This document shows positions 4,240 to 56,376 of a DNA stretch of 64,000 nucleotides, one piece after another. Within the stretch, counting starts at the first letter, position 1; each line of letters starts with the position of its first letter. Position numbers and translations under genes: made by a program. The notes under the pieces are model-generated. The model was given only the letters and a program-made list of their open reading frames with translations. It made no database searches and was not told the origin of the DNA. Source of the DNA: an uncultured virus (IMG/VR IMGVR_UViG_2061766007_000731) (taxonomy: Duplodnaviria; Heunggongvirae; Uroviricota; Caudoviricetes); the IMG/VR virus record IMGVR_UViG_2061766007_000731; one strand, 5' to 3'.

Positions 4240-4242
4240 ATG

Positions 4243-5269: not shown

Positions 5270-5636
5270 GTTTTTTATCTCGATGTTTCCGACCAAAGAA
5301 ACACCGAGGTGTTTGTAATTGGCGTGCCCTTTATGGGCCAAAAATAAAAAAACATATGCCTATGGCTAACACTACTCCTTTAGACTTACAACAATAGCTG
5401 CTATTTTCTTTCGATGCATAGGACTTATTAAAAAATTTTAAGTGTTATAAAAATCAGGTGGTTGAATACATTTAGTGATTATATAATAACCATTTCGTGT
5501 ATCATACACCTCGTAAAATCCGTGATCAGGAAATCCTTTACCGTTAACGACTTGCAGTCGATCGCCGTTAACGGTAAGTATTTCCTTGAAGGGTGGGGAG
5601 AGTCACCCTTTGAAGGTTAGCAATCTGGTATATGGA

Positions 5637-6248
5637 TTACTTAACGAAATCATACACCATTGCAGCCTGTTCCACATACTCATCCTGGATAGGCTGGCGA
5701 TTGACAAACTTCTGATAGAAGAACTTCTTGTCAGAACGTTTGGCGGTAATCGTCTTACCAGCGAGCATGTTGGTGAGCATGTTCCATGGGGACTTGCAGG
5801 CTTCAAGCTTTTTGTTAAAATCTCCCGGATCGATCACTCGCGCTGCACCCTGAATCTTGCCATTCGCATCCTTTTCGAGACCAGCGATGTCATAATGGCG
5901 ACGAAGAATTCCGCCAACATTGATGAAGTCCTGCTTCACGGCCACTTCGTCCTTGCCGTTCTTGAAGAACCGCTTTACGAGAGCATACACATTGGTAAAG
6001 GTGTTACCGTTACGAGATTTGCTCTCAGTAACAATGAGGGTGTGCTCAGGATCATTTGCATAATCCTCCATCGGAAGGAACGCGGCACATTCGCCGTCAG
6101 TAAGCGCAGAAGCGTTCATCTGACCAGCCTCTTGGACAGCCTTAATCATTTCTTCCTTGTTTTCAAATTCAACGACGTTCGTACTGTCGTTAAGGCGAGA
6201 CTCAAGACGCTCGCGTGCGGCTTCAGCCGCTTTCAAATCTACTGCCAT
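5637..6248 (-). CDS. Hypothetical early protein, 203 aa (MAVDLK...)
   Basis: ATG at 6248 after an A-rich leader; protein-like composition; TAA stop. Confidence 0.8.
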   Translation of the reverse strand: MAVDLKAAEAARERLESRLNDSTNVVEFENKEEMIKAVQEAGQMNASALTDGECAAFLPMEDYANDPEHTLIVTESKSRNGNTFTNVYALVKRFFKNGKDEVAVKQDFINVGGILRRHYDIAGLEKDANGKIQGAARVIDPGDFNKKLEACKSPWNMLTNMLAGKTITAKRSDKKFFYQKFVNRQPIQDEYVEQAAMVYDFVK

Positions 6249-6406
6249 AATGTAAAAAATATTTGGTTTCTTTTGTTTGTATACTACGGTCACGAATGTG
6301 ACAAGGGTTTTGTGTTCAGGGCCGTTAGGCCCAGTCAGTAGGTAAAAAAATAAGCCCCGCAACACACATGGAGTGTGAAGCGAGGCTTAAGACAGTTACA
6401 GGACCA

Positions 6407-6787
6407 CTATCGAATTTTGATACGATCCACCATTGTGTTGATATACTTGGCTTTAGGCATATACCTATTAGGACACACACCTTGACCAATGTAAATACGT
6501 GAATCCCAGAATCCTATGAAGAAATGCCAATCCCAGGTTCCCAAGGAAAGTTCAATGACAATTTTGTTGTCATTCCAACCTTCTGGAAGAGATTTGCGGA
6601 TATCTTTGAGGATTGAGATAAATTTCTCTTCTTCATCATTGGGATACGAACTATTTTCATAGAGCAGGTCTACAGCCATAGATTCATATCCATATACACG
6701 AAGGAGATAGATAGGTCGTTCAGGATCTGTGAGTTTCTCATAGAGATTTCCACAGTCCTTAAGATAATCTAAATCTAATTCTCTCAT
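6407..6787 (-). CDS. Hypothetical early protein
   Basis: 126-aa ORF whose Trp residues are all TGG. Confidence 0.75.
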   Translation of the reverse strand: MRELDLDYLKDCGNLYEKLTDPERPIYLLRVYGYESMAVDLLYENSSYPNDEEEKFISILKDIRKSLPEGWNDNKIVIELSLGTWDWHFFIGFWDSRIYIGQGVCPNRYMPKAKYINTMVDRIKIR

Positions 6788-6867
6788 GGCAGTGAATTTG
6801 ATTTTGTTAAATAACTTAAAGAAGCTCCCTACCCTACAATGGCAGGGAGCTGATGAGAATACACAGA

Positions 6868-7206
6868 CTAGCGAATCACCTCGCCAGTTTCGGGATCGAT
6901 GCGAGGCTCTTCCTCGAACACAGTAGCTTTATCGCCACCGTTGAGGCAGAGCTTGCGGAGGAAGATCATCACCAGATTGGCGATGTCCTCCAGTTCATCG
7001 ATCTTCGGCGCAACAGGGCGCTCATTGTTCTGACGGAACTCTTCCTGCTCATGGTAGGAAAGAGCCTGGTAGGCCCGATAAGCCTCCAAACGTTTCTGGA
7101 GCTCATCGTAGCGTTCGACCGTATGAGTAATCTCATACTGGTCCATCAGACTCAGCGTGATCTGCACGCCACAGTGACCCATGGTCTCCAAATTCTTCAA
7201 CTTCAT
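6868..7206 (-). CDS. Hypothetical early protein with DPETGEV C-terminus
   Basis: 112-aa ORF ending in IDPETGEVIR, a tail common in phage proteins. Confidence 0.75.
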   Translation of the reverse strand: MKLKNLETMGHCGVQITLSLMDQYEITHTVERYDELQKRLEAYRAYQALSYHEQEEFRQNNERPVAPKIDELEDIANLVMIFLRKLCLNGGDKATVFEEEPRIDPETGEVIR

Positions 7207-7264
7207 GACGAAATTGGGCAGTTGTTAAGGTGACTATCCTGTGGTAGTCTTTGCCAGCCAGTTA

Positions 7265-7337
7265 TGGTAGCTCCTAGTCGAATCGAACGACCCTATTTAG
7301 TATAATCATACTAATAGTACCATGTTGAATAGGAGCT
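7265..7337 (-). tRNA. Atypical tRNA-like gene with intact acceptor stem, T-arm and CCA but non-canonical D and anticodon arms
   Basis: 73 nt: AGCTCCT...GGTCG TTCGATT CGACT AGGAGCT A CCA. The central hairpin TTAGTA-TGATTA-TACTAA lacks a 7-nt anticodon loop. Confidence 0.65.
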
Positions 7338-7344
7338 AGAGAGA

Positions 7345-7443
7345 TTAATGATTTCTAGAACCTGGATCATCGGTCGCTGCACCAATGATGATAACGATAA
7401 TAAGAATCGCTCCCATTATCTCGAATAACCACCATGTACTCAT
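7345..7443 (-). CDS. Small membrane peptide, 32 aa (MSTWWLFEIMGAILIIVIIIGAA...)
   Basis: ATG overlaps the upstream TGA stop (ATGA); hydrophobic stretch; Trp is TGG. Confidence 0.5.
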   Translation of the reverse strand: MSTWWLFEIMGAILIIVIIIGAATDDPGSRNH

Positions 7444-7592
7444 CTTGAGACAATTACAGGGTTAAACATTGAGGCGTTTCCGCCATAGATCCGAGGACAT
7501 ACATATTTGCAATATGCCCAAGCAGAATCTAAGCTCCTGAAGTACTTATTTTCCTCCAGGAGTTTAGATCCGAGATAAATGTTTACTCTCAT
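7440..7592 (-). CDS. Small hypothetical protein (MRVNIYLG...)
   Basis: ATGA-coupled to neighbours at both ends; ends in TGA. Confidence 0.55.
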   Translation of the reverse strand: MRVNIYLGSKLLEENKYFRSLDSAWAYCKYVCPRIYGGNASMFNPVIVSR

Positions 7593-7879
7593 TTGCGCAT
7601 GGCTTTGAGAGTGAACATCAAGATTTCCATAGGAGCTGGAGTGTAAGGTTTTCCACAAACCTTAAGACTTTCGCTCCGTCTTTCATGGATCCATTTTCTT
7701 ACAAGCGGAAGCGCCTTTTCAAGAGGCTCCACGTTGTAAGTATATGTGAATCCATGCAGAACAGCAATTCTGCGGATGGAAAATTGATCATGCGGTATAC
7801 CGTGCATGTCGGTGATCCTCATGTATTGTCCAACGATTCGGAGGATCCGCTCATCGTAGACTTCTTTCTTTAATCTCAC
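7589..7879 (-). CDS. Hypothetical early protein
   Basis: 96-aa ORF with a GTG start; its TGA stop overlaps the next ATG. Confidence 0.6.
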   Translation of the reverse strand: MRLKKEVYDERILRIVGQYMRITDMHGIPHDQFSIRRIAVLHGFTYTYNVEPLEKALPLVRKWIHERRSESLKVCGKPYTPAPMEILMFTLKAMRK

Positions 7880-7967
7880 GACCGTAGTTTTTTATGAGAT
7901 TTAAGAATATACGCTTGTATTCACCATCGAGCAAAGCATTAACTCTTGATGGTGTAATATTACTCAT
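7851..7967 (-). CDS. Small hypothetical protein (MSNITPSR...)
   Basis: Fills the gap between neighbours; TGA stop. Confidence 0.35.
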   Translation of the reverse strand: MSNITPSRVNALLDGEYKRIFLNLIKNYGREIKERSLR

Positions 7968-8002
7968 CGCTTGGATGAGGAAATAGATACATGTCGGCAG
8001 AT

Positions 8003-8611
8003 CTACTTCTTCTCCTCGAAGAAGAGGATATCCGTGGATGTCCAATGCTCACGCTTGGAGCCCCAGTTCTCCTCCTTCTTAGAGTTGAACTTCTTCGTGT
8101 AGACCGTCTTGGAGGCGATCACACGAAGCGTGCGACCTTTGAGACCGCGAAGGCGATCCCTGCTCTCCTGACGAGAAGAGAGCTGCAGATTGAACTGCTG
8201 CGCCTCCTTCGTCAGTTTAGCGTCCGACATAATCTTGGCATAGAGCTCAGCTCCACCAAGATTGTTCATGGTCTTACCACCAGTGGTAACGCTTTCCTCA
8301 TTGCTGGGGAAGAGCTTACCAGAGCGGGCGAAGACCGCATCAGCGATGTCACCCACCAGAGTGAGTTCACCGCGCATAATGGTGCCGTTAGACACCCAAT
8401 AAACGCGGTTCCACTCACCGGGCTTCTCCTCGCTGACGAGAGCTTTGCCCATGGTGGTCAGGAAAATGTCGCCAAAGGTGACTTCATCACCCTTCTTCAG
8501 GGAGATGCCGTAACCCTTGGCAGAGGAGACTTCCTGCATCTCCTCGTTTTGGATGATCTCGTCGTACTGGGACTCGGAGATCCGTCTGATTGATGCCAGT
8601 TCAACTGCCAT
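8003..8611 (-). CDS. Hypothetical early protein, 202 aa (MAVELA...)
   Basis: GC-rich ORF with TGG-only Trp; first gene of the minus-strand block. Confidence 0.8.
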   Translation of the reverse strand: MAVELASIRRISESQYDEIIQNEEMQEVSSAKGYGISLKKGDEVTFGDIFLTTMGKALVSEEKPGEWNRVYWVSNGTIMRGELTLVGDIADAVFARSGKLFPSNEESVTTGGKTMNNLGGAELYAKIMSDAKLTKEAQQFNLQLSSRQESRDRLRGLKGRTLRVIASKTVYTKKFNSKKEENWGSKREHWTSTDILFFEEKK

Positions 8612-8629
8612 GCGAATCAGTTGGTGTTA

Positions 8630-8990
8630 AACTTCATGTTCCGCTACATGAAGACTTGGTTTCCCACGCCAAGTTTTACTGCCACATTTCTATAGTTCGT
8701 TTTCAGGTTTAACCGACAGACGTACATCGGTCTGGAGCTCTCCCACTCCATACACCGTACTCTGCGAACTTCGGTCTGCAGCAGCTGTTAATAATGCGGA
8801 TACTGTTCGACTATCAGTCAAGGGTTGACTAAACGGTCGGACAGTAGGACGAACGTTGCACAACGCGACTGCAAGCGGAGCGCAACTTTATTTTTTTCGT
8901 CCAAGAATTTGGACAAGGGTTGAACAGGAAAAACGATTTTCCCAACGGCAAAGCCGGGGGGACGTTTTTCCTGTGTATCCCCACTCGCAC
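8630..8990. other. Hairpin-dense GC-rich strand-switch region (possible genome terminus or structured RNA)
   Basis: Tandem hairpins cttcatgt/acatgaag, acttgg/ccaagt and tactgttcgac/gtcggacagta, plus a G run near 8955. Composition shifts abruptly from GC- to AT-rich at about 8990. Confidence 0.45.
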
Positions 8991-8998
8991 AACATAAA

Positions 8999-9030
8999 TT
9001 TGGAAAATTAAAATATTTTTATTATCTTTG
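8999..9030 (+). promoter_or_regulatory. Bacteroidota sigma-70 promoter
   Basis: TTTG-N20-TATCTTTG matches the TTTG(-33)/TAnnTTTG(-7) consensus. Confidence 0.75.
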
Positions 9031-9121
9031 CAAAAATAAAAGATTAAGTGTGTACAGGCAATACCTGTTGAGATTTCTACAGAATCAAATACATACTTAT
9101 ATATTCAAAAACTTATTATTT

Positions 9122-9817
9122 ATGAATGCAAAAATTGCAAAAAACAAGTCATTACTAAAAGAATACGAGTGTAATGGAACTCGTACAGTTTATTTAAAAG
9201 ATGGAGATGAGTTTCAAATTCAATTATTTAATTCTGAAACTACAGAAATTGGGGCTGAAATTTATATTAACAATGAAAGATTATCTAATATAATAATTCT
9301 TCGTCCTGGAGAACGAGTATGATTAGAAAGATTCACAGATAAACCACAAAAATTTAAATTCAGCACTTATAATATAGATATCAATGATCCACAAGTAAGT
9401 AATGCTATTAAATTTAATGGAGAAGTTACAGTAAAATTTTATAAAAAGATGTCTAATAATATTTATTATTCTCCAAACATTACTTGAACTTATTATAATT
9501 CAACAGTTCCAACATATCGTAGTACAACAACAGATTATTCTTCTATAACAGCATCATCTGTTAAATCTTCTATTTTAAGTATTAATGATGTAGAAACTGG
9601 CAGAATTGAAGAAGGTTCTCATTCTAATCAAAAATTTAATAGTATTGATATGAATTTGGAATCGTATCCTTCTTGAATAGAAACAATTAAGATATTACCA
9701 GAATCTCAAAAGCCTATATATTCTGATGATTTACATAAAATATATTGTACTAATTGTGGTAGAAAATTAAAAACTATGTATAAATATTGCCCATATTGTG
9801 GTACTAAAATAGAATAA
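9122..9817 (+). CDS. Hypothetical protein with C-terminal zinc ribbon (TGA=Trp)
   Basis: Reads through TGA at 9320 (ERVWLERF) to a TAA at 9817; ends CTNCG...CPYCG. Confidence 0.8.
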
Positions 9818-9845
9818 AATAAATTTCACAACTCAAAAAAATTAC

Positions 9846-9878
9846 AAATCCTACTAATTTATATTAGTAGGATTTTTT
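9846..9878 (+). terminator. Intrinsic terminator
   Basis: aaatcctactaat/attagtaggattt followed by a T run. Confidence 0.8.
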
Positions 9879-9879
9879 A

Positions 9880-9911
9880 TTTGCATATATAATATATTTT
9901 TACTATATTTG
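9880..9911 (+). promoter_or_regulatory. Bacteroidota sigma-70 promoter
   Basis: TTTG-N20-TATATTTG. Confidence 0.75.
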
Positions 9912-9939
9912 CCGAAATTAACGTTAATGTGTAAAAATT

Positions 9940-12231: not shown

Positions 12232-12378
12232 ATGACACAACAGGAACACAATACATTAATAGAAAATAATTTAATGTTAAAAGAAATTATAATGTATTTA
12301 GCCAAACATTCGCAAGATGATACATTAAGACAATTTATAATTAATCTTTTAGCTGATAAAGTAGCAAATCAATGATAG
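12232..12378 (+). CDS. Small hypothetical protein
   Basis: MTQQEHNTLIENNLMLKEII...; ends TGA-TAG. Confidence 0.6.
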
Positions 12379-13652
12379 TATATTCACAAACAGCAAATTC
12401 ATCTCCAGAACTTCCAGAAATTAAAGGATATAAACCACAATTTCGCTATGAAGAACCAGGGGGGGATGAACTACAACAGGTACAACAACCTATTATTATA
12501 CAAGCAACACAAGAACCTACACAAGAAGTAGTTGAAGAAAAGAAACAAGAACAATATTCTCCAAATGAATGATCTGATATTCGTTCTATTATAAAAAGAA
12601 ATGAAGGGTTTACTTCTACTGCTAAAAAATCATTTAATGAACCTAACCCAACAGTAGGATATGGATTCTTTAATATACTTCCAGATGGTACTAAAATAAC
12701 AGATGGAATGATGTTATCTAAAGCTCAAGCTGATAAACAGTTAGACATAGCTATAGAAAAAAATACAAAACAGATACAATCTTATTTAAATAAATATGGT
12801 GTATCTGTAAGCCCAGAACAATTTAATATTTTACTTGATTTAGGATATCATGGCGGAAACGGTCTTGTAGATAAACTTCTTAGACAGTCTAATGGAGATC
12901 ATAATCAAATAGCGAATCTATTACAACGATATGCTACTACTGCAAAATATGGGGACGCTTCTATTAGTAAAGGTTTGAGAGATAGAGCTAGAAGACGCGC
13001 CGAAGGATGAAGAAAATATCCAGTAAAAGGTAAATATGGTTTGAAAATACCAAATGTTTTATTAGTTAAAGGGGGAAAAAGAATTTCTAATTTTACTAAT
13101 GGAGAAAAAACATTTACTGAACAATGTGCAGAATTTCAAAATACTATGCTTCGAAACGCTGGATATAGAACAAGTGGAAGTGCTTGAAATTTAAATGACG
13201 CTGATTTAGTATATTCTGGTTATATAGCTGAGAATAAACCAACTAAATATAATAAATATAAAGTTCAAAAATATAATTGAGCTGCTGCAAAAAAATTAGC
13301 AAATGAATTTGATACTAATCAATTAGACACAAATAAAGTGTATGTAACAAATATGTATTATAACGAATCGCCGTATCAAGAAACCGCATATAACGAAGGT
13401 CGAGATTCTATAACTGGAACTCACACTGGTTATATGTGATTTAATCCTGATACTAGTCAATGAGAAGTTATACATAATATACACGGCACTGTTCATGTAG
13501 ATCCATTATCAAGCATTAAAGGAAAAAAATATGGTGTTACTGCAATATACCAACCTAAAGAAAAAAATGTTATCGATAAAGCTATTGATTTAGGAAAACG
13601 ATTATCGAAAAGTAAATTAATACAAAATATATCAAATATACAAGCAAAATAA
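12372..13652 (+). CDS. Two-domain peptidoglycan hydrolase: GH24-like lysozyme plus Cys/His (CHAP/NlpC-like) domain (TGA=Trp)
   Basis: NEGF...TVGYG lysozyme motif, then EQCAEF...GSAW...THTG...IHN. 426 aa when TGA is read through. Confidence 0.7.
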
Positions 13653-13683
13653 AAGCCAACTCTAAATAGAGCTGGCTTTTTTT
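13651..13683. terminator. Bidirectional terminator between convergent genes
   Basis: aaaagccaactcta/tagagctggctttt. Confidence 0.7.
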
Positions 13684-14270
13684 ATTGCATTTATATGTAT
13701 TTGTGATATTATCGCTCGTCCTTGATTTGATTTAAGAAAATCTAAATCTTGTTTATTATCATAGAAAAGATTTTCTGTTAATATTGCTGGACATCGGGAT
13801 TGATATAATACTGTAAAATTTTCTTCTCAATCGGGATCTCCATCAGATCAATCTGCTCTTAATTTTTGTCCATACGATGGAAGTAATAATTGTGCTTCAT
13901 TAAAAAATAAAGTAGCATATTTATCACTATTAGTCAAACCTTTAGTTGTATATACACTTCAACCTCTGGCATTCATTCAATTTCCATTTCCTGCAGCATT
14001 AGCGTGAACTGAAATTAATAAACAATTGTTTCTATCATATTGATTACAATATCTATTTATACGATTTACTCTTTCTGATAGACTAATATCAGTAGTTTCT
14101 GGATTAATGATATGGTGGGAAATATTGTTTAATTTTAATGCCATATCAATCCGATTAACAATATCTTTATTAAATTCGTATTCATAAAATGAACTATCTG
14201 GTGATCTTTTACCAGATGTATTAGATCCATGTCCGGCATCTAATAATATAACCAATTTATTTAAATCCAT
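13662..14270 (-). CDS. N-acetylmuramoyl-L-alanine amidase (Amidase_3) endolysin (TGA=Trp)
   Basis: DAGHG, SVHANAAGNGN-W-MNARG-W-SVY and PAILTENLF motifs. 202 aa only if TGA is read through. Confidence 0.9.
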
Positions 14271-14271
14271 A

Positions 14272-15150
14272 TTATTTTCTTTTTAATCTTGGATAAGCTG
14301 AGAAATCATCTTGACTATACTCAGATCTTCACCGTCTACCTTCTGGCGACATAGTTTCTCAAGCTTGTTCATACATCATGGTTGGATGTCATCTGTGCTT
14401 TAAATACTGATAATCTCCATTATTTAACTCTATGCCGCTTGGTAAATGATTAACTTCTGGATTACGTCTTCACATTTCCATTTCTTCATACGAAAGATTA
14501 TTAAACGCAGATTCTAAATCATAATATTGAGTATTATTATATTCTTGTGGAACAGTATTATATCAATTACTATATTTAGGTTTTTCCTTAAAATAATAAG
14601 GAGATGCTTTTCAATCTTGTTTTCCTACTTTTTTATTTGGGTCTAATGCTCTGCCATAAGCATCGACTTTAGCTGGATTTCAATCATAAACATCTCTAGC
14701 CATTGCTCTTCTGGCAGCAGATCGTATCCCCAATCATCCATTTTCAGCAGAACCATGATCTAAGTGTTCTGCAATTTTAATAGGATCTGTTTCTCCACTA
14801 TCCAATATAGTCATTAATTTTGGAGATTTGTTGATAAGCTTATTTACACCTATATTGTATGCTGTTTCTAATAAAGCTCTTCTAACACCAAGAGATAAAT
14901 TGTCTCAATTCTTTATTCTTTGTTTTAGTACTTTTTCATTACTATTATAGTCTTTAACTATTTGAGCATCAGCTTCTTCTTTAGTAATACTACCTTTTGC
15001 TATTAAAGCAGGATCAGCAGATCCTCAACCAATTAGTTTTTGTCCTCTAACTGTAATTACTTTAGGAGAAAATGTTTCAAAAGATTTAGTAAAATTGATT
15101 AAATCTGTATCTAATCCAGCTTGTGCTTTATATATTCTTTTTAATTTCAT
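14272..15150 (-). CDS. Lysozyme-like (GH24-type) protein with C-terminal extension (TGA=Trp)
   Basis: FETF...LIGWG...ITKEEAD...ALLETAYNIG. 292-aa frame broken only by TGA and absent from the ORF track. Confidence 0.7.
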
Positions 15151-25538: not shown

Positions 25539-28500
25539 AATCTAAAATANNNNNNNNNNNNNNNNNNNNNNNNNNNNNNNNNNNNNNNNNNNNNNNNNNN
25601 NNNNNNNNNNNNNNNNCACCAATTGATAATATTCCTGTACAATCAGTAATTAGTTATTTAGAAACTACAAACATTACTCCTAGAGATTATTATAAAGGAA
25701 CTTCGTTTAGATATTCTGGAGAATGATTAACTGGGACACATTATTTAAATGATCAATACTTTGTAGATTTTGTAGTTATTAATAATGTACTATTATGTTG
25801 TAAGAAGAGTCATTTGTCTTCATTAGAATCAAAACCAGTAAGATTTATATACGACGATAAAGGTAATATAGTTGGTATAGATTCTGAATATTGAGATTTT
25901 GTTTTATCTGGATTTAATGTAATTGGTGGTAATTTTCAACGCTATTATGAAGGAAATACTAGTGATATAACAAATCCTGGTGAAGGCGATATATGTACAG
26001 TTCCTAATTCTAATACTAGTTATATATATTATAAAGGTGAATGACATCCTTGATTATATATATCTTTAGATAATATAACTAATTGAAATAATAAAGCAGA
26101 TAAAGTTCATTCTGCCGTTGCAGGTCACATTGCTACCCTCGATTCTTCCGGCAACCTTGTTGACTCCGGTAAGGGTATTAGCGACATAAACCCTTTGTGG
26201 GGCAACATCCAGGGCTCTCTCGAGAATCAGACGGACTTGATGTCCGCACTTGGAGATAAATATGAGAAACCTTCTACCGGCATTCCCGCTTCGGACTTGG
26301 CAAGCGGCGTGATCCCCGACGTGAGCAACTTCATCACGGCATCTGTCGATAACCTCGTCAACTACTACCTCAAATCCGAGACTTACACGAAGGCGGAGGT
26401 ACAGGCCCTCATTGGTGCTATCCAGTCATTCCACTACGAGATTTACGCTTCGACAAGTGCGGTGACGAATCCGCAAGGGAATGTGCTTTATCTCATCGGC
26501 CCTACAGGAAGCGGTAGTGACAAATATGAAGAGTATGTGTATGATGTAACCAAGCAGAATCCTTGGATAAAGTTTGGTGACACGAGCATAAATTTATCGG
26601 ATTATGTAACGATAACCGCTCTCAATACGTCCCTCTCTGCTTACACCACGACCGCCGATCTCAATACGCTCCTTGCCGCCAAGCAGGATGTCATTGATGA
26701 CCTTGCTGCTATTCGTAGCGGTGCTTCTGCTGGAGCAACGGCATACCAAAAGCCAGCGAATGGCATACCCGCATCTGATTTGGCAGCAGGTGTTGTTCCT
26801 GACGTGTCCGGCAAGGAAGACAAGACAAATAAAGTAAGTGCTTTTCAAGTAACACCCGATGATACACACTATCCAACTGAAAAACTTGTCAAGGACAGTC
26901 TTGATGCCAAGCAACCGACTATTGACGCGAATCATAAGTTGGACTACTCATTGCTGAGTAATACGCCTACTATTCCGACGGTTCCTACGGATATAGTCAA
27001 GTACACGGCACAATCGCTTACGGATGCCCAAAAGACGCAGGCGCGTACCAACATAGGCGCAGGAACTTACTCGATGCCGTCTGGTGGCATCCCAAAGACC
27101 GATTTGGCACAAGCCGTCAGCACGTCTCTCAATCGTGCAGATGCGGCCATCATCTATACCGACCTTGGCGAGCCGGATTGGGAGGAGTATGATTATGATA
27201 CTTCTGCGTTCTTGACTACGCTCCGAACGACTGGGTATTACTCCTTTACGATGGACGAGGAGTTTGTGTATTACGTCACGGTGCAGGCGATAGAAATGGG
27301 TTCATATACCTATGTGCTCCAGCAGTATTGGGGCTCTGAGGAAGGACCCGGAAGTGTCTATTATAGAGGCTTCGTCTGGGACAACGACAACGACGAGGTT
27401 GTCTCGGACAACGATATGTCGTATATGACTATCCAGCAGGCGAGTGACCTTTTTGCCAATAAAAACCACAACCACTACAAGAACGAACGGGACACCGCGC
27501 CTGTATGGTCGTACTGTGACACGATGCAGACGCTGGATGCTACGAGTGAGGTAGTATATACCGATACGACAACCTCGACCCAGTGGCTTATCGAAGGGGC
27601 ATACTCGATATACCAACCAGCGGTTAGGTATCAAAAGGTGACGCCACTGCAAGGTGGGACTTGCTATTATCAAAGGTGTGGTACCGTGGCTTCGAACACT
27701 GTGACGTGGGGGCCTTGGTATCGCTTCGATACGGTCGAGGCGAACCCTACCGTCCCTGCCGGTACGACGCCGACCTCGCTCACTGGGTTGAAGATTGGAA
27801 GCGACTATTACGACATAGAGGCTGGCGGCGGCACGGTTACTGACGTGACCGTTGGCGGGACTTCCGTCGTTGATGGCAACGGCGTGGCGGTCGTCCCCGC
27901 AATTCCTACGGTCAACGATGCGACGCTGACGATTAAGATGAACAATGCCAGCAAGGGCACGTTCTCGGCCAACGCAGCGTCGAATACTGAAATCGACCTC
28001 GGCACGGTAATCACCTCGCATCAGGACATATCGGGCAAGGCCGACAAGGTAAGCGGCGCTACAAACGGACATTTCGCCGGGTTGGATAGTAACGGCAACC
28101 TTACGGACAGCGGAAAGGGCGCAAGCGACTTCGGAACGTACAGCAAGCCGTCGGGCGGTATTCCGGCTTCGGACTTGGATTCTGCCGTACAGACGAGCTT
28201 GGGAAAGGCTGACACGGCGCTCCAATCGTTCACGGAGACTGACCCTACCGTTCCATCCTGGGCTAAGGCATCGAGCAAGCCGAGTTACGACTACTCCGAG
28301 ATTGGCAACACGCCGTCTCTGGCTACCGTAGCGACCAGCGGTTCGTACAACGATTTGAGCAACACGCCTACCATCCCCACACTCAATCTGTTCATCGTGA
28401 CCGTCGGCTACGATAGTGAGGAGGATGAATACTCCATCACTAACGATGTGTCATTTGCCGACCTGTGCGCCGCTTACGAAGCAGGCAAGGCACTAATCCT

Positions 28501-31500
28501 TATCTATACCGACGATGGTGGCTATGCACAAGAGTACACTTTGTCCGATTATGCGGCAGACGATGACTATATAGCGTTTTCATCATCCTCTGTCCCGGAG
28601 ATAACTAAAATATTTTCGATTGGTAGCGATGGGTCTGTAGGATATTCGGAACAAGTGGCGAGGATGAGCAGTATTACCAATGATGTCCTTTTTGTAAGAG
28701 GGCACAATGCAATATGGAGAGGAACTTGCGCGACCTCGGCATCTACGGCAGCAAAATATGCCAGCTGCTCGTCGTTCCTTCCAGAAGACCTTGCCGTGGG
28801 CGTGATGGTGGTCGTCACGTTCTCCAACACAAACATAGCTGCGCCGAACAACCTCACGCTAAATATCGCCGCTCGCGGCGCGAAGCCCATCAAGCGGTGG
28901 GTAAACGGCGGCTTGGCGGATATAGACAAGCCAGAAAACCTCACGGGGACGATGGCTTTTGTTTATGATGGGACGAACTGGGTGACTTGGTACGAGTCAT
29001 TCGACAATGATGACGGCAACTGCTTGGATGCTAAATTCGGCAATGTTACCCTCCATCAGTGGAAGCCCGACTACACTATGACGGAAGGCTCGTATGTAAA
29101 GGGCGCGGACGGGTTGCTTTACGAATATAGCGGCTCCAAGTATGTGGAAGTTGCTGTCGGCGACGCGGAGCGGGTGCGATTCCTTGGGATTTATCCTAAA
29201 TACTCCTCTTGGACGAATGGCTTTGCCTTCGGAAAATACGAGAACGACCAATGGGTTACGATTGAGAGTGAGAAGTTCGGCTACGACACCTCGCAAGATG
29301 CAAGTATTACTATGGAGTATATCCGTGCCGTCCCTTCCGGGGCGACGCATTTCCGCACATCGAGCGCAACATCGTCGCTGCTTGCTCTTGAGCGGAACTT
29401 CTACCTCTATTTCCAAACGGGCAAGCCTGCCGTCAGTCAGGAGGAATTAGAAACAGCACTTACTAATAAATATGAAAAACCTTCAAGTGGAATTCCTGCT
29501 AGTGATATTGCTTCTGGAGTAATTCCAGCGGCATCTAATGATAATCCATCTATGGATGGAACAGCTTCTGCTGGAACTGCATCTACATATTCAAGAGGCG
29601 ATCATATACATCCTACTGATACATCAAGAGCCCCATTAGCATCTCCATCGTTTACTGGTACTCCTACAGCACCTACTGCATCGTCTGGTACTAATACTAC
29701 TCAAATTGCAACAACAGAATTTGTAGCAGGAGAACTATTACCATATCAACAATTAGTAATACAAATAACTGGTAGTGGGAATACTTTAGTAGAATCAAAT
29801 ATAATTTCAGATATTATTCCTGGGCATTTTTACAGATTTTGAATAAAAGATTGAGATGTTAGCGGTGTTACTGTAACAGGTTCTACTTATATAAAATTAC
29901 GTATTAATTATCTTAATTCTAATAATACTAGCACTTCATTAATTACAAAATATGTAAATAACTCGTTAGCAGATTATTATGATATTGAAATTCCTAGTTC
30001 TGCTGTATCTGTTGTTGTTAAAGGTCGTGTTTCTAGTGGATCAATTGGTAAAATATTTATAGAAGATATTACTTCTATAATAGAAAATAATGGAAATTAT
30101 ATAGTACCACAAATTGATGAATCTCCGTTACTAAAAATAGAGAATGAGATAAAACCTTTGTTGTTTCTACAGGGGCAGCGTCTTTTGACGGAGGGTGGAA
30201 CGGAACAAGCCGGTACAATCGCAGCGACAATCAATATCTACAAGAACATTACTTCGAACACTAAATACTATATTACCGCATACTCTCCGAGCCTCGCTAC
30301 CGTCTGTGCCGCACAACACACTAAATCAAGCGGCGACTTGTTGCAAGCATATACGCTCGGCAACACGGGGACCTATAAATATAGGCAGGAGATAACGACG
30401 GCTACGACAAGCCCCAATGCCTCAAAACTCCTCGTATATGGTTCGGATACGCAACCCATCTTGCACCGTGTCCTCCGCGTCCTGCTTATAGGCAGTTCCT
30501 GGCACATGAACACCTGGTGGTATCTGAACAAGATGTTCGCCGATGCGAACGTCGTAGCCGACCTTCACGCATACTATATGGGCCATTCGCAATTCTACGA
30601 ATGAACACAATTATATGATAATAATTTAACACCATTGACAGGAGATGAAGCATCTCGTGACGCTCGTTATTGTATATCGTTAAATGGGGCAAATTGAACT
30701 TCACATGTATTTAATGATGCATTTGGAAATGAAACTTCTACACTAACGGCTCAACAATATAGAGACGCTTTTTATAATGATTTGACATCTGGTAATTGAG
30801 ATATTATAGCATATCAACAAGGTGCAAAAGAAAGTATAACATGAGAAGCTTGATCTTATTATTCAGATTTAGTTTCTATTTTAAAACGTCATTTAAATTC
30901 AAATGGTTTTCTTGCATTTAATGCAACATGAACTCCCGGTATTAATTGAACTTCAATGTCTACATATGGCTATGATAATACAATTAATGGGCAAAGAAAT
31001 TGACAAGAAGACGCAAATGTTAATACAAGAAAATTTATGATACTTTCTGGACAAAATAAAGTGGCACCTAATGGCGAACTTATATGAAAAATGCGCAGAG
31101 ATGATACTTTAAATACTTCGGGTGATTTAACGTCAGATAACTTGCATTTGGCTAACGGATTACCTATGTATGCTGCTGCAGGATGTTGATGAGAAACATT
31201 CATATCTCCATCTATGGGTATCCCATTTGATACTTTAAGTTGATTACCAGATAGTAATACTCAAAAAATACATTTTAATGGGAGTGAATTTATGAGTATT
31301 AGTTCTGCACAACAAGCTTTAGTGCGTAAATATATAAAAGAAGCTTTATCTGATAGATTTGGCGCCGATTATTATGATATATCTAAAGCTTCTGTTGCGT
31401 CAATAACTGTTCCTGCAATTTCAAATAATATAGCTGCCGATAAANNNNNNNNNNNNNNNNNNNNTATAATGAAGTGCATCCTGTTGTTTGTACTACAGAA

Positions 31501-36728: not shown

Positions 36729-36729
36729 T

Positions 36730-51819: not shown

Positions 51820-53256
51820 ATGAGAATATCAGGTTTTACTACCACTCGGCCTAATATGGCCAGTACACGTCTTGCAGAAGATTTTATGAAATTTCTTGGT
51901 ACGAAACCACAGCGTTTAGGTATTGTTTCTACATTATACGATCAATATACGGCTACTCATCTTACTGAGTCTTTAATGAATACCTATACCATGGAGCGTG
52001 GCAAGAAGGGATTTCAATCTATTAATTCATTCTTAATTGAATGGGATCTTCAAGTAAATAAGATTAAGAAACTCCCTATTATCGCCGCTCCTGAAGGAAC
52101 TGGTGTTAATGGTTGTGATGTTAAGTTCTACTTTGGTGAGAACTATTATCAGATGTATGATACGTTTGTGGTTGAAAAGACTCGTCAGCAGTTCTTTGTA
52201 ACTAGCATGCCTCAGAGACTTCGTGATAATTGCTTCCTTGTTATTGCTAAGATTCTTGATAACAACTATGATTCTGTTGTTGATTACGGTGGAGCTACTG
52301 CTGATGCCATGATTGGTCTTCAAACTCGTTTCGTTACTAACTACCATCCAGAAATGCACGATCGTGGTTATGTCAAATATCAGAGCAATGTAGAAAAGAT
52401 GCGTACACATATTAGTACTCATCGTGTTGATGTTGACATGTCTGCTCAGTATCAGGCTATGGAAGATATCTTTATTCAGATTGGTAAAGGTCAGGACGAT
52501 GACCCTGTTTACAAAATGAATACTGCTGAGAAAGATTGTTTAGATTCTTTCATGGAAGCTCGTAACAACGCTTTACTTTATGGTAAATGTGATGTTGATG
52601 AAACTGGCAAACCTAAGATTTACGATGAAATCGGTCGTCCTATCATAACTGGTGATGGTGTACTTCCTCAGATTGAACGTTTTGCTACCAAGTTCGTCTT
52701 TAATAAGATGAACGTTAACTACTTCGAGAAAGCTCTTCAGACAATGGTAGCTAAGAGTGAAAAGGCTCAAGGTAACAGCTATGTTTTACTTTGCAATAGT
52801 GCTTTCTATCATGAGTGGCAACGTGTAATGTCTGCTTGGATTGGTGACAAGAAGACTGATGGCGCTTTCTTATATTCTAAGGGTGCTAATGGTTACATGA
52901 ATCTTGGTGCTACATATGAAGGTTATGAATATGGTGGCAATAAGATTATTGTTAAGATTGAGCGTTCACTTGATGTAGAGTTTGCAAATCGTAAATATGC
53001 TGTAATGCTTGACCTCACTGCTGATGCAGCTACTGGTAAGCCAGCTATTGCTTACTTTACTTTCAAGGGTGGTGATTTCATCCACAACTTTATTAACGGT
53101 GTTGGCGGCAGCACTGGTTTAGCTTCTGGTGAAGTTTCCAGCCCTGTTGCAGCTCGTAAATTAATCAACTGGGGCTATGCCGGAGTTGGTGTATTTAATC
53201 CTTATAGAAGCGTTATCCTCATGTCTGAGGAAAATCGTGATAGCTTCTGGGCTTAA
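51820..53256 (+). CDS. Major capsid protein (crAss-like)
   Basis: 478 aa with strongly biased codon usage, follows the scaffold gene; IITGDGVLPQIE and GVGVFNPYRS motifs. Confidence 0.85.
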   Translation: MRISGFTTTRPNMASTRLAEDFMKFLGTKPQRLGIVSTLYDQYTATHLTESLMNTYTMERGKKGFQSINSFLIEWDLQVNKIKKLPIIAAPEGTGVNGCDVKFYFGENYYQMYDTFVVEKTRQQFFVTSMPQRLRDNCFLVIAKILDNNYDSVVDYGGATADAMIGLQTRFVTNYHPEMHDRGYVKYQSNVEKMRTHISTHRVDVDMSAQYQAMEDIFIQIGKGQDDDPVYKMNTAEKDCLDSFMEARNNALLYGKCDVDETGKPKIYDEIGRPIITGDGVLPQIERFATKFVFNKMNVNYFEKALQTMVAKSEKAQGNSYVLLCNSAFYHEWQRVMSAWIGDKKTDGAFLYSKGANGYMNLGATYEGYEYGGNKIIVKIERSLDVEFANRKYAVMLDLTADAATGKPAIAYFTFKGGDFIHNFINGVGGSTGLASGEVSSPVAARKLINWGYAGVGVFNPYRSVILMSEENRDSFWA

Positions 53257-53350
53257 TTTTTAATTTAGAATATATAATTCCCCTCTCTTTAATCCCTCTA
53301 TAAAAAGGGAGGGGATTTATATATAATTAGTTTTTTATTAGATAAAATAT

Positions 53351-54208
53351 ATGACAGATAAAATTATACTCCGTAATGTATATGGTAAGATGAAGGAAAT
53401 TCATATTCAGCCTGGTAAACAGCCTAATGGAAATAGATGGCCATTTGTAAAACCAGTACGTTATGATTCAATGGGTAATGCTGAAATGATTTTAAGTCAA
53501 GATGAATTAAATGATCCTGGTCGTGAATTCTTCCTTCCAGAAGACATGGATATTGTTCTTGTAGATGGTAAGGTATTTGATCTTACAAACCCTCTTGAAA
53601 AGAATATTTGGACATCGATTCAGTATTCTGATTTGATTGCTCCTACTCGTGGATCTAGAGATAAAAACGGCAATCTTTATATCGATGGCAGTAAAACTCG
53701 ATATGGTACTGCTGAATTCTATGTAGATATTCCTGGTGAAGAATCTGCTAGAATTGTAAAGAAAAGACAAAAAATTACCGAAGCTTGGACTTTGATTGGT
53801 CAGGATTCTGAATCTGGTAGATTAACAAAGACTAAACTTTTAGGTAAAGTTATGATTAATGCTCCTGCTACAGATGTTGAAAAATTCTTGTATGACAGGG
53901 CTACAGACAATCCTGATGAAGTTATTGAATTATATAAGGGGAGTGATGCTGGATTGAAACTTCTTCAGATTGATGCTAAAGATAAGGCTATAATTATCAA
54001 GAAAGACGGTATGTATGTATATGGTGATACTATTCTAGGTGCTACCGATTCTGCTGTTTTACTCTTTTTTAAAGAGCCTCAGAATCAAAGAATACTACAG
54101 TTAATTAAAAATGAAACTTATCCAGAATATGCCGCCAGATTGACTCCTATTACAGAATCAATTGAACCTACTACAACCGTTAAAAAGACTACTACTTCGA
54201 AAAAGTAA
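53351..54208 (+). CDS. Conserved crAss-like protein downstream of the MCP
   Basis: 285-aa ORF at the syntenic position after the MCP. Confidence 0.75.
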   Translation: MTDKIILRNVYGKMKEIHIQPGKQPNGNRWPFVKPVRYDSMGNAEMILSQDELNDPGREFFLPEDMDIVLVDGKVFDLTNPLEKNIWTSIQYSDLIAPTRGSRDKNGNLYIDGSKTRYGTAEFYVDIPGEESARIVKKRQKITEAWTLIGQDSESGRLTKTKLLGKVMINAPATDVEKFLYDRATDNPDEVIELYKGSDAGLKLLQIDAKDKAIIIKKDGMYVYGDTILGATDSAVLLFFKEPQNQRILQLIKNETYPEYAARLTPITESIEPTTTVKKTTTSKK

Positions 54209-54265
54209 TAAAAATAAATATAGAGATAGGCATAGTCCTCGTAATTAATTGATATTAAACTTGTT

Positions 54266-55222
54266 ATGACGGCAAGGGAAATGTATGAATACGCTCTTAT
54301 TGAGCTTAATAAACTTGAGGCGCCTAGTCTTTTACTTGAGGACTATAATTATTTTATAAATAAGGCGGTTCAGCAATATATTAATTTGATATATGCTAAA
54401 CTTGAACTTGATCAACAAAGTGTAGATGATTTACGTGTATTAAAAACTTCTACAATACTTATTCCAGCTCCATTAACAGATGCTGTTGTTGGTAGTTCTG
54501 GATTAATTCAAAATAGTTTATTAGGGCAATCCTATTATGCAGATTTACCTAATGATTATTTTCATTTAATTAATTGTATTGTAGAATATCAAGTACAAAA
54601 TAATTTTAAATGTTATAATAATGGTGATGCAGTATTTTTTGCCGCTCGTAGATTAACTTCTGATATGTATGCTCAAATTATTAATAATGCATATTTAAGA
54701 CCTACGTATAAAAGACCTTATTATTATTTAAATAATATAAATCAACGCATTACACCTCTTCCTACAGATTCTACTATGGATACTAATATATTAAATTATA
54801 ATAATGGTAGTGCCGATAAAGGAACTGTTGGGACGCACGGCAGTAATTATTCTAGCGGTAGTTATAATTCTTCTAATCTATTAGATTCTGAAAATACAGC
54901 TGGAGATAGATTAGCAAATCCTTCTATTGTACGATTAGAACTTAGATTTGGAAAAGATGCCAGTATATTTACTCCAACCCGTCTTTATGTAGACTATGTA
55001 AAAGCTCCTATGTATATTAGACTAACACAGGAACAAATTGATGCTACACTTGATTATTCTCAAGTTCTTGAATTTCCAGATTACGTTTGTTTTGAAATTG
55101 TAAATATTTTTACTAGATTATTAATGGAGAACGCTAGTGACCCTAGATTACAAACAAATATGCCTATTAATAATACTATTGTAAATCCTGCTTTACAACA
55201 ACAGCAAACACAACAAAAATAA
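54266..55222 (+). CDS. Tail ring/neck protein-like
   Basis: FINKAVQQYI...DDLRVLK...ELRFG...DYVKAP...LEFPD. Confidence 0.7.
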   Translation: MTAREMYEYALIELNKLEAPSLLLEDYNYFINKAVQQYINLIYAKLELDQQSVDDLRVLKTSTILIPAPLTDAVVGSSGLIQNSLLGQSYYADLPNDYFHLINCIVEYQVQNNFKCYNNGDAVFFAARRLTSDMYAQIINNAYLRPTYKRPYYYLNNINQRITPLPTDSTMDTNILNYNNGSADKGTVGTHGSNYSSGSYNSSNLLDSENTAGDRLANPSIVRLELRFGKDASIFTPTRLYVDYVKAPMYIRLTQEQIDATLDYSQVLEFPDYVCFEIVNIFTRLLMENASDPRLQTNMPINNTIVNPALQQQQTQQK

Positions 55223-55239
55223 ATAAATAGAAAATAATT

Positions 55240-56298: not shown

Positions 56299-56320
56299 TA
56301 TAGAAATAAAGAATAAAATA

Positions 56321-56362
56321 GAAAAGAGCGAGTGAGAGAATATCTCGCCCGCTCTTTTATTT
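56321..56362 (+). terminator. Intrinsic terminator
   Basis: aaaagagcgagtgaga/tctcgcccgctctttt. Confidence 0.7.
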
Positions 56363-56376
56363 TAAATACATATGCT

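Follow-up and report, generated by a model that had tools for sequence, protein, structure and literature searches.

A GC-rich gene island of standard-code architecture, probably of imported type, in a TGA-recoded crAss-like phage

The window analyzed here is a 64,000-nucleotide stretch of DNA from an uncultured tailed virus (Caudoviricetes; IMG/VR record IMGVR_UViG_2061766007_000731). Its left part contains a minus-strand gene group in which a conserved gene for a 202-aa protein is followed by four short ORFs (ORF1 to ORF4; Table 1). The original prediction was that three consecutive minus-strand ORFs of this group end in TGA, and this is the case for ORFs of 38 aa (7967 to 7851), 96 aa (7879 to 7589) and 50 aa (7592 to 7440). 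Direct reading of the minus strand places the tetranucleotide ATGA at 7854-7851, 7592-7589 and 7443-7440. The two stop/start overlaps that had been singled out as a sign of translational coupling, at 7592-7589 and 7443-7440, are present; in fact, each of the three TGA codons is part of an ATGA, although the ATG at 7854 has no support as a start, the 96-aa gene starting upstream of it at GTG 7879. These are the only TGA stops among 50 delimited ORFs, and all three belong to neighboring ORFs. In total, the island uses TAG three times, TGA three times and TAA twice, and the other 42 ORFs use TAA 31 times and TAG 11 times, with the proviso that ORFs outside the island were delimited under table 4, where a TGA stop is impossible by construction. 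The tight gene junctions of the recoded part have the form TAAnATG, TAGnATG or TAATG.

Table 1. Positions of the island, its genes and the other features discussed in the text
Feature	Position	Strand	Properties
Compositional island	5500..8990		GC 0.463 vs 0.336 (left) and 0.292 (right); ~3.5 kb, including non-coding leader 8612-8990
ORF4, 32-aa hydrophobic candidate ORF	7345..7443	-	TAA stop; start overlaps ORF3 stop
ORF3, conserved 50-aa gene	7440..7592	-	Stop TGA 7442-7440 overlaps ATG of next ORF (ATGA 7443-7440)
ORF2, conserved 96-aa gene	7589..7879	-	GTG start; stop TGA 7591-7589 overlaps ORF3 ATG (ATGA 7592-7589)
ORF1, 38 aa	7851..7967	-	TGA 7853-7851; DNA conserved, reading frame not
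Conserved 202-aa gene	8003..8611	-	First gene of island; GC3 0.70; TAG stop
Promoter-like motif TTTG-N20-TAnnTTTG	8999..9030	+	Right edge of island, upstream of first TGA-containing plus-strand gene
Zn-ribbon protein gene	9122..9817	+	3 in-frame TGA
Lysis genes	12372..15150	+, -, -	Lysozyme-like (+), amidase (-), lysozyme-like (-); 6 + 4 + 10 in-frame TGA, no TGG
TGA-free tail-fibre core	26087..29842	+	GC 0.50; 17 TGG, 0 TGA
Capsid module, crAss major capsid protein to ring protein 2	51820..57033	+	5 late genes; 1666 codons; 0 TGA, 13 TGG

The gene group lies in a compositional island where the GC content at third codon positions (GC3) is up to 0.70, compared with about 0.12 outside, and the non-coding leader is GC-rich as well. 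The right edge of the island is sharp, with the GC content dropping from 0.475 to 0.235 within 200 nt at about 8990, and the code boundary, at about 8990-9120, is also a change of the coding strand. The architecture of the island is that of the standard code, with TGG as the only Trp codon, all three stop codons in use and 4-nt overlaps; none of the 11 ORFs on the minus strand between 1139 and 8611 has an in-frame TGA. The right edge carries a match to TTTG/TAnnTTTG, a promoter-like motif corresponding to the Bacteroidota consensus. This motif has 14 matches in the window compared with 4.2 expected, a number that none of 100 shuffles reaches, and its enrichment would be an indirect hint of a standard-code host. 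Upstream of the island on the minus strand, there is no exact copy of this host-type motif, and a one-mismatch copy lies over the bases 8999-9030.

The 202-aa protein has, besides itself, 14 homologues with 38-88% identity. Its predicted model (pLDDT 80) has no convincing fold match: Foldseek returned no PDB match at E<=0.001, and a wide VIA search gave nothing at Z>=5, the best match being the Pf3 ssDNA-binding protein (Z 3.4, 73 residues aligned, rmsd 3.3), a similarity insufficient for assigning a fold. Pfam and PHROGs contain no matches for the eight island ORFs, a 242-aa island protein is linked only to unnamed viral clusters in the ESM Atlas, and blastn of 5400-9000 detected no related DNA in GenBank phages. 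Neither relatives of the 202-aa or 96-aa proteins nor the DNA pattern of the 50-aa gene were found in IMG/VR, and the 202-aa profile had no relative among GTDB species genomes. Searches of viral, metagenome and genome contigs with both proteins and with the 202-aa profile produced pattern matches only, none of which was confirmed by tblastn. Two metagenome-contig loci, L001 and L002, were identified with a degenerate DNA pattern. Parts of the island are carried by relatives that are 8-25% apart in nucleotide sequence, so an import would not be recent; the GC content of the island is undecayed although it is shared by relatives of this divergence, and its gene content differs from relative to relative.

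The window comes from a cattle gut metagenome and, as judged from its genes, belongs to a crAss-like phage, the late and lysis genes of which require TGA to be read as Trp. In particular, it encodes a crAss-type major capsid protein (PF23898, Crass_capsid; E 6e-11, 41.8 bits against a cutoff of 27), with 49% and 44% identity to the nearest GenBank major capsid proteins, as well as proteins matching CrAss_Ring_1 (36 bits, above its cutoff) and CrAss_Ring_2 (24.6 bits, slightly below its cutoff of 27) and, by family search, a P22-like portal among the structural genes. Neither the giant virion RNA polymerase nor the DNA polymerase modules were recognized among the ORFs scanned in this 64-kb partial genome. 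The TerL protein matches phrog_6681 (E 2.6e-71) across 11 in-frame TGA codons, and family matches likewise span such codons in the genes for the portal (4), the amidase (4) and the two lysozyme-like proteins (6 and 10). The density of TGA is highest in the lysis genes, reaching 10 in 292 codons at 14272-15150. ORFs of at least 150 aa add up to 12,151 aa with table 11, compared with 21,574 aa when TGA is read as W.

Comparison with L002 provides aligned positions at which the meaning of TGA can be read. Two of the three TGA codons of the Zn-ribbon gene correspond to TGG (Trp) in L002 and the third one to AGG, and in the lysozyme-like gene a TGA of the window lies opposite a TGA of L002 at a conserved Trp position. 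By this comparison, which involves a small sample of aligned Trp positions, TGA is a Trp codon in the late genes. Relatives of the Zn-ribbon protein with 33-44% identity are encoded in 18 IMG/VR loci; five of these 18, namely those listed (L009, L011, L013, L015 and L016), have long main-strand ORFs with 0-2 in-frame TGA codons and a gene order unlike that of the window, and were left out of the comparison. For MT835470.1, the closest complete relative in GenBank, the ORF sums are 36,143 aa under table 11, 40,328 aa with TGA=W and 38,942 aa with TAG=Q; it has no tRNAs and shows no clear recoding, which makes it uninformative here. ARAGORN detects no suppressor or other tRNA in the 64 kb of the window, and Rfam no family at its gathering threshold; with 1,403 masked bases in a window that covers just part of the genome, the mechanism of UGA decoding is not seen in it. 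Detectable suppressors are reported for only 35% of code-4 phage genomes in the portion of the Borges preprint considered here (10.1101/2021.08.26.457843).

All Trp codons in the 5.6-8.6 kb genes had been described as TGG, and the eight ORFs of 5637-8611 (898 codons) indeed contain 13 TGG and no in-frame TGA. Once the island, the left arm and the capsid module are set aside, the remaining 34 ORFs contain 167 TGA vs 53 TGG codons (Fisher p = 3e-8 vs the island). The exclusive use of TGG nevertheless fails as a marker of early genes, because it is found also in the late capsid module and in the GC-rich core of a tail-fibre-like gene (25529-31600, 2023 aa), where all 19 TGA codons are confined to the low-GC flanks of the core. 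The distribution of Trp codons indicates that TGG-only use tracks GC mosaicism, reflecting base composition and ancestry and not timing.

Homologues support the prediction that the 96-aa and 50-aa genes are real and have their true C-termini at TGA. The alignment of the 96-aa protein includes three of five matches and leaves out P0018 (2285 aa, 24% identity in five stretches) and P0020 (a 308-aa repeat protein) as unrelated repeat matches. Among the three, P0016 (66% identity) has identical start and end positions, and P0017 and P0019 end two residues short of the end of the 96-aa protein; the GTG start at 7879 occupies the position of an ATG start in P0016 and in the L002 gene. The L002 locus, which is itself TGA-recoded (four in-frame TGA codons in the lysozyme-like ORF), keeps the TGA-in-ATGA end of this gene, with 63 of 96 residues identical and 29 of those codons differing synonymously. 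The AlphaFold model of the 96-aa protein (pLDDT 92) consists of four helices, the last one formed by residues 83-95, and has no Foldseek match in PDB at E<=0.001. For the 50-aa gene, the C-terminus falls at residue 50 or 49 in all four homologue clusters (71-92% identity), and the L001 homologue has TAG at the same residue, 50, with 38 of 50 residues identical and seven synonymous differences. The proposed check of homologue C-termini thus came out in favor of termination, given that an extension with Trp past the TGA is seen in none of three homologues of the 96-aa gene and in none of four of the 50-aa gene.

The ATGA junction between these two homologue-supported genes is kept in L001 and L002, and as a 4-nt overlap between real genes it points to a translationally coupled pair, the coupling itself being predicted. 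All five terminating TGA codons, three in the window and one each in L001 and L002, sit in ATGA. Since a start codon ends in TG, a 4-nt start/stop overlap is possible with TGA only, and the two TGA terminators cannot drift to TAA because the start codon of the next gene would be lost. The original prediction also anticipated read-through extensions of the early proteins, and these turn out to be minute for the real genes: the 96-aa protein would gain two residues (W-E, then TAA; ...KAMRK becoming ...KAMRKWE) and the 50-aa protein eight (...VIVSR becoming ...VIVSRWVHGGYSR), with TAA after seven sense codons, and the one long extension, from 38 to 101 aa, belongs to the doubtful ORF1. The next TAA or TAG is 2 codons from the TGA of the 96-aa gene in the window and 27 codons in L002, and the sequences after the TGA differ; since the backup TAA is not kept in L002, there is no sign of selection limiting read-through.

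ORF1 itself is probably not a protein gene, as suggested by its alignment with L002, which requires indels of -8, +1 and -2 nt and in which the frame opened by the L002 ATG runs for 22 codons before a stop. Its exact sequence was not found in the protein collection, and its 101-aa table-4 reading had no homologue among proteins of 55-177 aa. That reading (+63 aa) overlaps the conserved 96-aa gene out of frame for about 190 nt. A hairpin common to the window and L002 in this stretch was no better than in shuffles (z -1.1 and -1.4). At the other end of the group, ORF4 has no family match and is missing from L001, where ORF3 stops with TAG.

TGA stops and NTGA overlaps gathered in one island suggest that the host uses the standard code or that this part of the genome descends from standard-code DNA. 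The interpretation that we favor, with a probability of about 0.7, is that an imported-type island with standard-code architecture resides in a TGA-recoded crAss-like phage and that its two conserved genes truly end at TGA. Under this scenario, the native AT-rich genes (terminase, portal, tail fibres and lysis enzymes) would be translated with UGA as tryptophan, and the island, presumably of foreign origin, would consist of small accessory genes that keep the gene architecture of the standard code. The two TGA terminators would be held in place by the downstream start codon in the 4-nt overlap. They might be tolerated because reading them as Trp would add just 2 or 8 residues before TAA, and because the island appears to head a leftward transcription unit next to a host-type promoter region. 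The island would presumably be translated by unmodified host machinery, with RF2 stopping at UGA, before suppressor activity suffices. We infer early expression of the island from its position, and we likewise infer a temporal switch of the code.

The view that early genes are read in the host code and late genes only after a code switch is in line with the C-termini at TGA and with the requirement of the late genes for TGA=Trp, but it is not a new model: an early-standard, late-recoded switch has been published for crAss-like and other recoded phages, as far as the parts of these sources considered here extend (PMC7886860; 10.1101/2021.08.26.457843; 10.1101/2022.06.29.495998). It is possible, and we put this forward tentatively, that UGA has two working meanings in a single infection, as the terminator at coupled early ATGA junctions and as the main Trp codon of lysis and virion genes. 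Equally tentative is the suggestion that at least two recoded phages, diverged from one another, have kept this arrangement. If so, the proportion of terminated to extended 96-aa and 50-aa gene products would be a built-in, measurable read-out of the timing and completeness with which the phage reprogrammes the code of its host.

The constraint of the 4-nt overlap fully accounts for the TGA stops, which argues against an adaptive timer in which early UGA stops were selected as a clock, with post-switch extensions altering or inactivating early proteins as late genes become translatable. We consider such a timer unlikely, even though the TGA stops are confined to a minus-strand island adjoining a strand switch, a second recoded phage (L002) retains the ATGA at the end of the 96-aa gene, and the lysis genes are the most TGA-dense, as the consulted passages of the Borges preprint report for lysis-gene recoding (10.1101/2021.08.26.457843). 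The extensions of the real genes are too modest for this role (+2 and +8 aa), and in L002 the extension differs in both length and sequence. The sole long extension is that of the non-conserved 38-aa ORF, the TAG of L001 indicates that TGA is dispensable for the function of the 50-aa gene, and the late capsid genes are TGA-free as well. Still less probable is that TGA means Trp everywhere, the small ORFs being either mis-delimited, with the longer table-4 readings as the real products, or no genes at all. In its favor, table 4 opens the 96-aa and 50-aa frames by just 2 and 8 codons, so that the proteins are near-identical, the 38-aa ORF looks spurious, and short code-11-only predictions are treated as mostly false positives in the part of the Mgcod preprint considered (10.1101/2022.06.29.495998). 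However, the extension occurs in no homologue, and in L001 the 50-aa gene is closed at this residue by TAG, which leaves no ambiguity. Where residues are identical, many codons of both genes differ synonymously. In the predicted model of the 96-aa protein, four helices form a compact fold that has reached completion by residue 95, and the 38-aa ORF, if read with table 4, would run out of frame through the 96-aa gene.

Two further explanations are, in our estimate, exceedingly improbable. An assembly chimera, in which a recoded contig wrongly received a fragment of some standard-code phage or bacterium and the two codes were never on one molecule, could account for the abrupt GC jump at about 8990 and for the failure to find related DNA in GenBank phages. 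Against this, the island and its flanks (4200-10200) are present without a single difference on one 14,151-nt contig of run X1, an independent assembly that possibly comes from the source sample, and an X6 contig, from another study, bridges the right junction (8391-9801) with about 93% identity. Moreover, L002 has the 96-aa gene, the Zn-ribbon gene and the TGA-recoded lysozyme-like gene on one contig, in the same synteny as the window. The remaining alternative is context-dependent decoding, with UGA read as stop or Trp according to local context (UGA-G or a start overlap) independently of time. It draws on the G that follows all five terminating TGA codons (ATGAG), but this G is explained by AGN second codons of the overlapping genes, and G follows 38 of 165 sense TGA codons as well (23% vs a background of 29.8%, p = 0.06), so TGAG is commonly read as Trp.

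The favored reading, an imported-type island with working TGA stops, has several practical implications. Mis-annotation is widespread among recoded gut phages, and genes such as those described here would be extended or fused by gene callers working with a single code for the whole genome or for each large block. Short code-11-only predictions are not always false positives, and TGG-only or TGA-free status is not to be read as a sign of early expression, given that it marks imported GC-rich segments and capsid genes too. To our knowledge, the proposed code switch of phages has never been timed; two short conserved genes that end at the reassigned codon, on the same molecule as genes with TGA=Trp, could serve as natural probes of suppression efficiency over time.

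In Mycoplasma and Spiroplasma, which use code 4 (NCBI table 4), UGA encodes Trp. The native genes of the window resemble this state, with TGA making up 167 of 220 Trp codons; by the code table, however, a uniform code-4 genome leaves no room for TGA as a gene terminator or for 4-nt NTGA overlaps. Closer parallels are the crAss-like blocks described by Yutin et al. 2021 (PMC7886860) and in the Borges preprint. As in those blocks, to the extent that the consulted passages describe them, the late structural genes and the lysis genes depend on TGA=Trp, the opposite strand has genes that lack in-frame TGA, the code boundary is a strand switch, and the lysis genes are the most recoded. These passages deal with the in-frame location of the reassigned codon, to which the window adds two conserved genes with TGA as a working terminator. 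Unlike the blocks described there, TGA-free status in the window extends to the capsid module and to a GC-rich segment inside a late gene.

The 'dual-coded' early blocks of Mgcod (Pfennig, Lomsadze, Borodovsky, 10.1101/2022.06.29.495998), as presented in the part of the preprint considered here, yield near-identical proteins under either code. The predicted genes of the island behave in the same way, with no in-frame TGA, a boundary at the strand switch and lengths of 96 vs 98 aa and 50 vs 58 aa, the 38-aa ORF being the exception. In contrast to the view of short code-11-only predictions in that part of the preprint, two such genes are backed here by homologues, synonymous divergence and a TAG-terminated orthologue. 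The zeta crAss-like phage Lera, which carries a suppressor tRNA for TAG, has this codon only at ORF ends with another stop soon after, according to the section of the source that we refer to (PMC12386605). The TGA stops of the window similarly are followed by TAA after one and seven sense codons, although the backup TAA is not kept in L002. Whereas TAG of Lera gives no sign of sense use in that section (PMC12386605), TGA in the window is both the main Trp codon of late genes and the terminator in the island. Taken as a whole, the window follows the published picture of crAss-like phages, in which two codes are used block by block; it adds a small nuance that refines this picture without changing it.

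The summed length of ORFs of at least 150 aa in the window is 12,151 aa under table 11, in which TGA is a stop, 21,574 aa when TGA is read as W and 13,351 aa when TAG is read as Q, and the large plus-strand genes are broken under table 11. The case for recoding is not made from ORF length alone, because dropping TAA as a stop inflates the sum too, as expected in such AT-rich DNA. Family matches, in contrast, span in-frame TGA codons in TerL (phrog_6681, E 2.6e-71; 11 TGA), a P22-like portal (4), an Amidase_3 gene (4) and two lysozyme-like genes (6 and 10). Two of the three TGA codons in the Zn-ribbon gene at 9122-9817 are located opposite TGG in L002, a related, itself TGA-recoded metagenome locus, and in a lysozyme-like gene a TGA is opposite an L002 TGA at a conserved Trp. 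Judging from these alignments, TGA encodes Trp in the recoded genes of the window. Matches to PF23898 (crAss major capsid) and to crAss ring proteins identify a crAss-like phage, whose major capsid protein shares only 49% and 44% identity with its closest counterparts in GenBank; the sequencing runs with matching DNA carry the label of bovine gut metagenomes. The 64-kb window, a partial genome with 1,403 masked bases, yielded neither a tRNA nor an Rfam family.

The minus strand at 7000-8700 was read directly, and the coordinates were confirmed by script (Table). ATGA occurs at 7854-7851, 7592-7589 and 7443-7440, and the eight ORFs of 5637-8611, 898 codons in all, encode Trp by 13 TGG codons and lack in-frame TGA. 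The original prediction was correct in both observations, namely three neighbouring minus-strand ORFs with TGA stops, two of them in ATGA overlaps, and the exclusive use of TGG in the 5.6-8.6 kb genes.

Table. Minus-strand ORFs of 7345-8611 and genes without any Trp codon
Feature	Coordinates	Strand	Description
202-aa ORF	8611->8003	-	stop TAG; four tightly packed small ORFs downstream
ORF1	7967->7851	-	38 aa; stop TGA
ORF2	7879->7589	-	96 aa; GTG start; stop TGA
ORF3	7592->7440	-	50 aa; stop TGA
ORF4	7443->7345	-	32 aa, hydrophobic; stop TAA
Trp-free genes	1139-4752	-	three left-arm genes, 579 codons, including a DnaD/HTH_36 replication-initiator-like gene
Trp-free gene	16003-16950		315-aa PD-(D/E)XK exonuclease
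Trp-free gene	36402-37272		
Trp-free gene	54266-55222		318 aa, within the capsid module

An exhaustive profile-free search with ORF2 yielded five hits, three of them related (P0018 and P0020 were dropped as repeat proteins). P0016 has 96 aa and 66% identity to ORF2, with coincident first and last residues, and P0017 and P0019 end two residues before the ORF2 end. L002 bears a P0016-like gene with an ATG start and a TGA stop inside an ATGA that opens a truncated ORF3-like frame; 63 of the 96 residues are identical to those of ORF2, with a synonymous difference in 29 of those codons. The AlphaFold model of ORF2 (pLDDT 92) consists of four helices, the last of which comprises residues 83-95. All four ORF3 homologue clusters (71-92% identity) stop at residue 50 or one earlier, and the orthologue in a second related locus, L001 (38 of 50 residues identical), has a TAG stop exactly at residue 50. 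L001 lacks ORF4, and upstream of ORF3 it has another gene, of 127 aa, whose TGA stop is again part of the ATGA at the ORF3 start. The refuting outcome named in the original prediction, a homologue extending past the TGA with Trp, was sought for ORF2 and ORF3 and found for neither; TGA thus stands as the true end of both.

The third TGA-ending ORF fares differently. The DNA of ORF1 is well conserved in L002, yet indels of -8, +1 and -2 nt shift the frame, the frame opened by the corresponding ATG in L002 is closed after 22 codons, and the 101-aa table-4 reading of ORF1 has no homologue among proteins of 55-177 aa. ORF1 is therefore probably not a protein gene on this comparison, which leaves two of the three predicted TGA-ending genes. 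Across the ORF1 stretch (window 7880-7967, L002 4336-4420), the DNA is more conserved than the adjacent coding sequence and includes 15- and 25-base identical runs. Possibly, this stretch serves as a regulatory leader for ORF2; the hairpin predicted in both loci was no better than shuffles.

Start codons end in TG, so that a stop overlapping a start by 4 nt is necessarily TGA. All five terminating TGAs found (three in the window and one each in L001 and L002) are within ATGA, and tight junctions in the recoded part take the form TAAnATG, TAGnATG or TAATG. The stops of ORF2 and ORF3 are fixed by the ATG of the next gene because a TAA there would destroy that ATG, and hence their persistence is explained without selection for UGA as a timer; ATGA-embedded TGA stops are a hallmark of standard-code architecture. 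The predicted read-through extensions exist formally, given that all three frames lengthen under table 4, but ORF2 gains only W-E before a TAA and ORF3 eight residues, the sole substantial growth (from 38 aa to 101 aa, overlapping ORF2 in another frame) being that of the doubtful ORF1. In L002, the frame past the ORF2 TGA runs for 27 codons unrelated to the window sequence, and conservation is lacking both for the extension and for a backup stop. Local context was also tried as a discriminator of stop from sense TGA and rejected: among 165 sense TGA codons tested for the following base, 38 are followed by G (p = 0.06), which means that TGAG commonly encodes Trp.

The use of TGG alone does not mark early genes, contrary to what the original prediction implied. 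The late capsid module at 51820-57033 (five genes for the crAss major capsid protein, three unnamed proteins and ring protein 2) has 13 TGG and no TGA in 1,666 codons; a suppression-dependent codon is perhaps avoided in the genes with the highest expression. Similarly, in the tail-fibre-like gene at 25529-31600 (2023 aa), the core at 26087-29842 (GC 0.50; 1,251 codons) has 17 TGG and no TGA, and all 19 TGA codons are in the low-GC flanks. This core looks like a module swapped in from a standard-code source, and in this gene Trp codon choice follows ancestry, not timing. Given that the capsid module and the tail-fibre core are also TGG-only, Trp codon choice tracks local composition. An 803-aa BspA-type leucine-rich-repeat protein (31763-34174; PF13306, E 3e-74) encoded among the tail genes likewise has a GC-richer part, 32417-34135, without TGA. 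Several low-GC genes, some with masked bases, contain neither TGA nor TGG (Table). Two table-4 ORFs at 58696-61388 overlap by 154 nt around the masked run 59932-59966 and are probably a single gene, or reflect frame uncertainty from masking.

The TGA-ending ORFs belong to a compositional island, 5500-8990, with a GC content of 0.463 compared to 0.336 and 0.292 in the left and right flanks; at approximately 8990, GC falls from 0.475 to 0.235 inside 200 nt. GC3 is as high as 0.70 in the gene for the 202-aa protein, versus about 0.12 in native genes. Because the 380-nt non-coding leader (8612-8990) is GC-rich as well, ancestry is favoured over codon selection. The island stops are three TAG, three TGA and two TAA, compared to 31 TAA and 11 TAG in the other 42 ORFs, which were delimited under table 4. 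An assembly artefact is ruled out by a 14,151-nt contig that spans 4200-10200 with no difference and comes from run X1 (which may be the source sample), by a contig of X6, from another study, that bridges 8391-9801, and by L002, in which genes for ORF2, the Zn-ribbon protein and a TGA-recoded lysozyme-like protein share one contig. Outside the island, a direct repeat of about 50 nt flanks a masked 10-nt run at 5051-5162, where the X1 Logan contig omits 61 nt and thus has a single repeat copy, reflecting either copy-number variation or assembly duplication.

Among the differences listed, 6407-6787 (a 126-aa gene) is absent in run X4 and replaced in X6, 7592-7906 (ORF1/ORF2) is swapped for 291 other letters in X8, and 7259-7813 (ORF4, ORF3 and most of ORF2) for 477 letters in X6, a cassette-like turnover with breakpoints near gene junctions. 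By these comparisons, the island behaves like a hypervariable accessory region. Its proteins had no match in Pfam or PHROGs, and the predicted folds of the 202-aa and 96-aa proteins no convincing structural match. The equivalent early block of L002 encodes two proteins not present in the island, a DHH-family phosphoesterase-like protein (4724-5728, minus strand; PF01368, E 1.1e-6) and one that bears an ExoX-like motif at its C-terminus (2641-3087, minus strand; PF20600, E 6e-10).

The motif TTTG-N17-23-TAnnTTTG, which we take to be the Bacteroidota promoter consensus, is enriched in the window (14 matches versus 4.2 expected). It precedes both TGA-rich genes (9122, 9940 and, on the minus strand, 15150) and TGA-poor genes (16003 and 50708). 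The two classes are not distinguished by their transcription signals, and gating, if any, would be translational, as in the published model. Two copies of the element, 8998-9051 and 9879-9932, are 74% identical over 54 nt, and the second is preceded by a 20-nt inverted repeat with a terminal T run (9839-9882). These 40 nt are matched, with loose ends, by many unrelated contigs from four runs, which fits a generic host-type promoter consensus.

Taken together, we consider it likely, with a probability of roughly 0.7, that this is a mosaic genome in which an imported or exchanged standard-code accessory island forms the head of the leftward unit, with two real TGA stops that are fixed by 4-nt overlaps and cheap to read through, in a phage for which UGA otherwise means Trp. 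Plausibly, the island would be expressed early, under host termination. The locus is of value mainly because it offers natural probes with which to follow the code switch and because it calls for caution in the annotation of recoded phages.

In a non-exhaustive search of literature passages and listings, we found no explicit account of a reassigned codon that still terminates genes at ATGA overlaps with support from homologues. In the Mgcod preprint (10.1101/2022.06.29.495998), the code changes between blocks together with the coding strand, the early block is called "dual-coded", and short code-11-only predictions are taken as mostly false positives. Suppressible stops with a TAA close behind are described for Zeta crAss-like phages (PMC12386605). 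The coexistence of two codes is upheld here insofar as ORF2 and ORF3 end at TGA beside recoded late genes, but it is not new: an early/late code switch has already been proposed, so the interpretation in the original prediction is the published model. Specifically, Yutin et al. (2021; PMC7886860) limit reassignment in crAss-like phages mostly to late genes, and the Borges preprint (10.1101/2021.08.26.457843) proposes that early genes are translated in the host code and that a code change gates structural and lysis genes, and reports preferential recoding of lysis genes.
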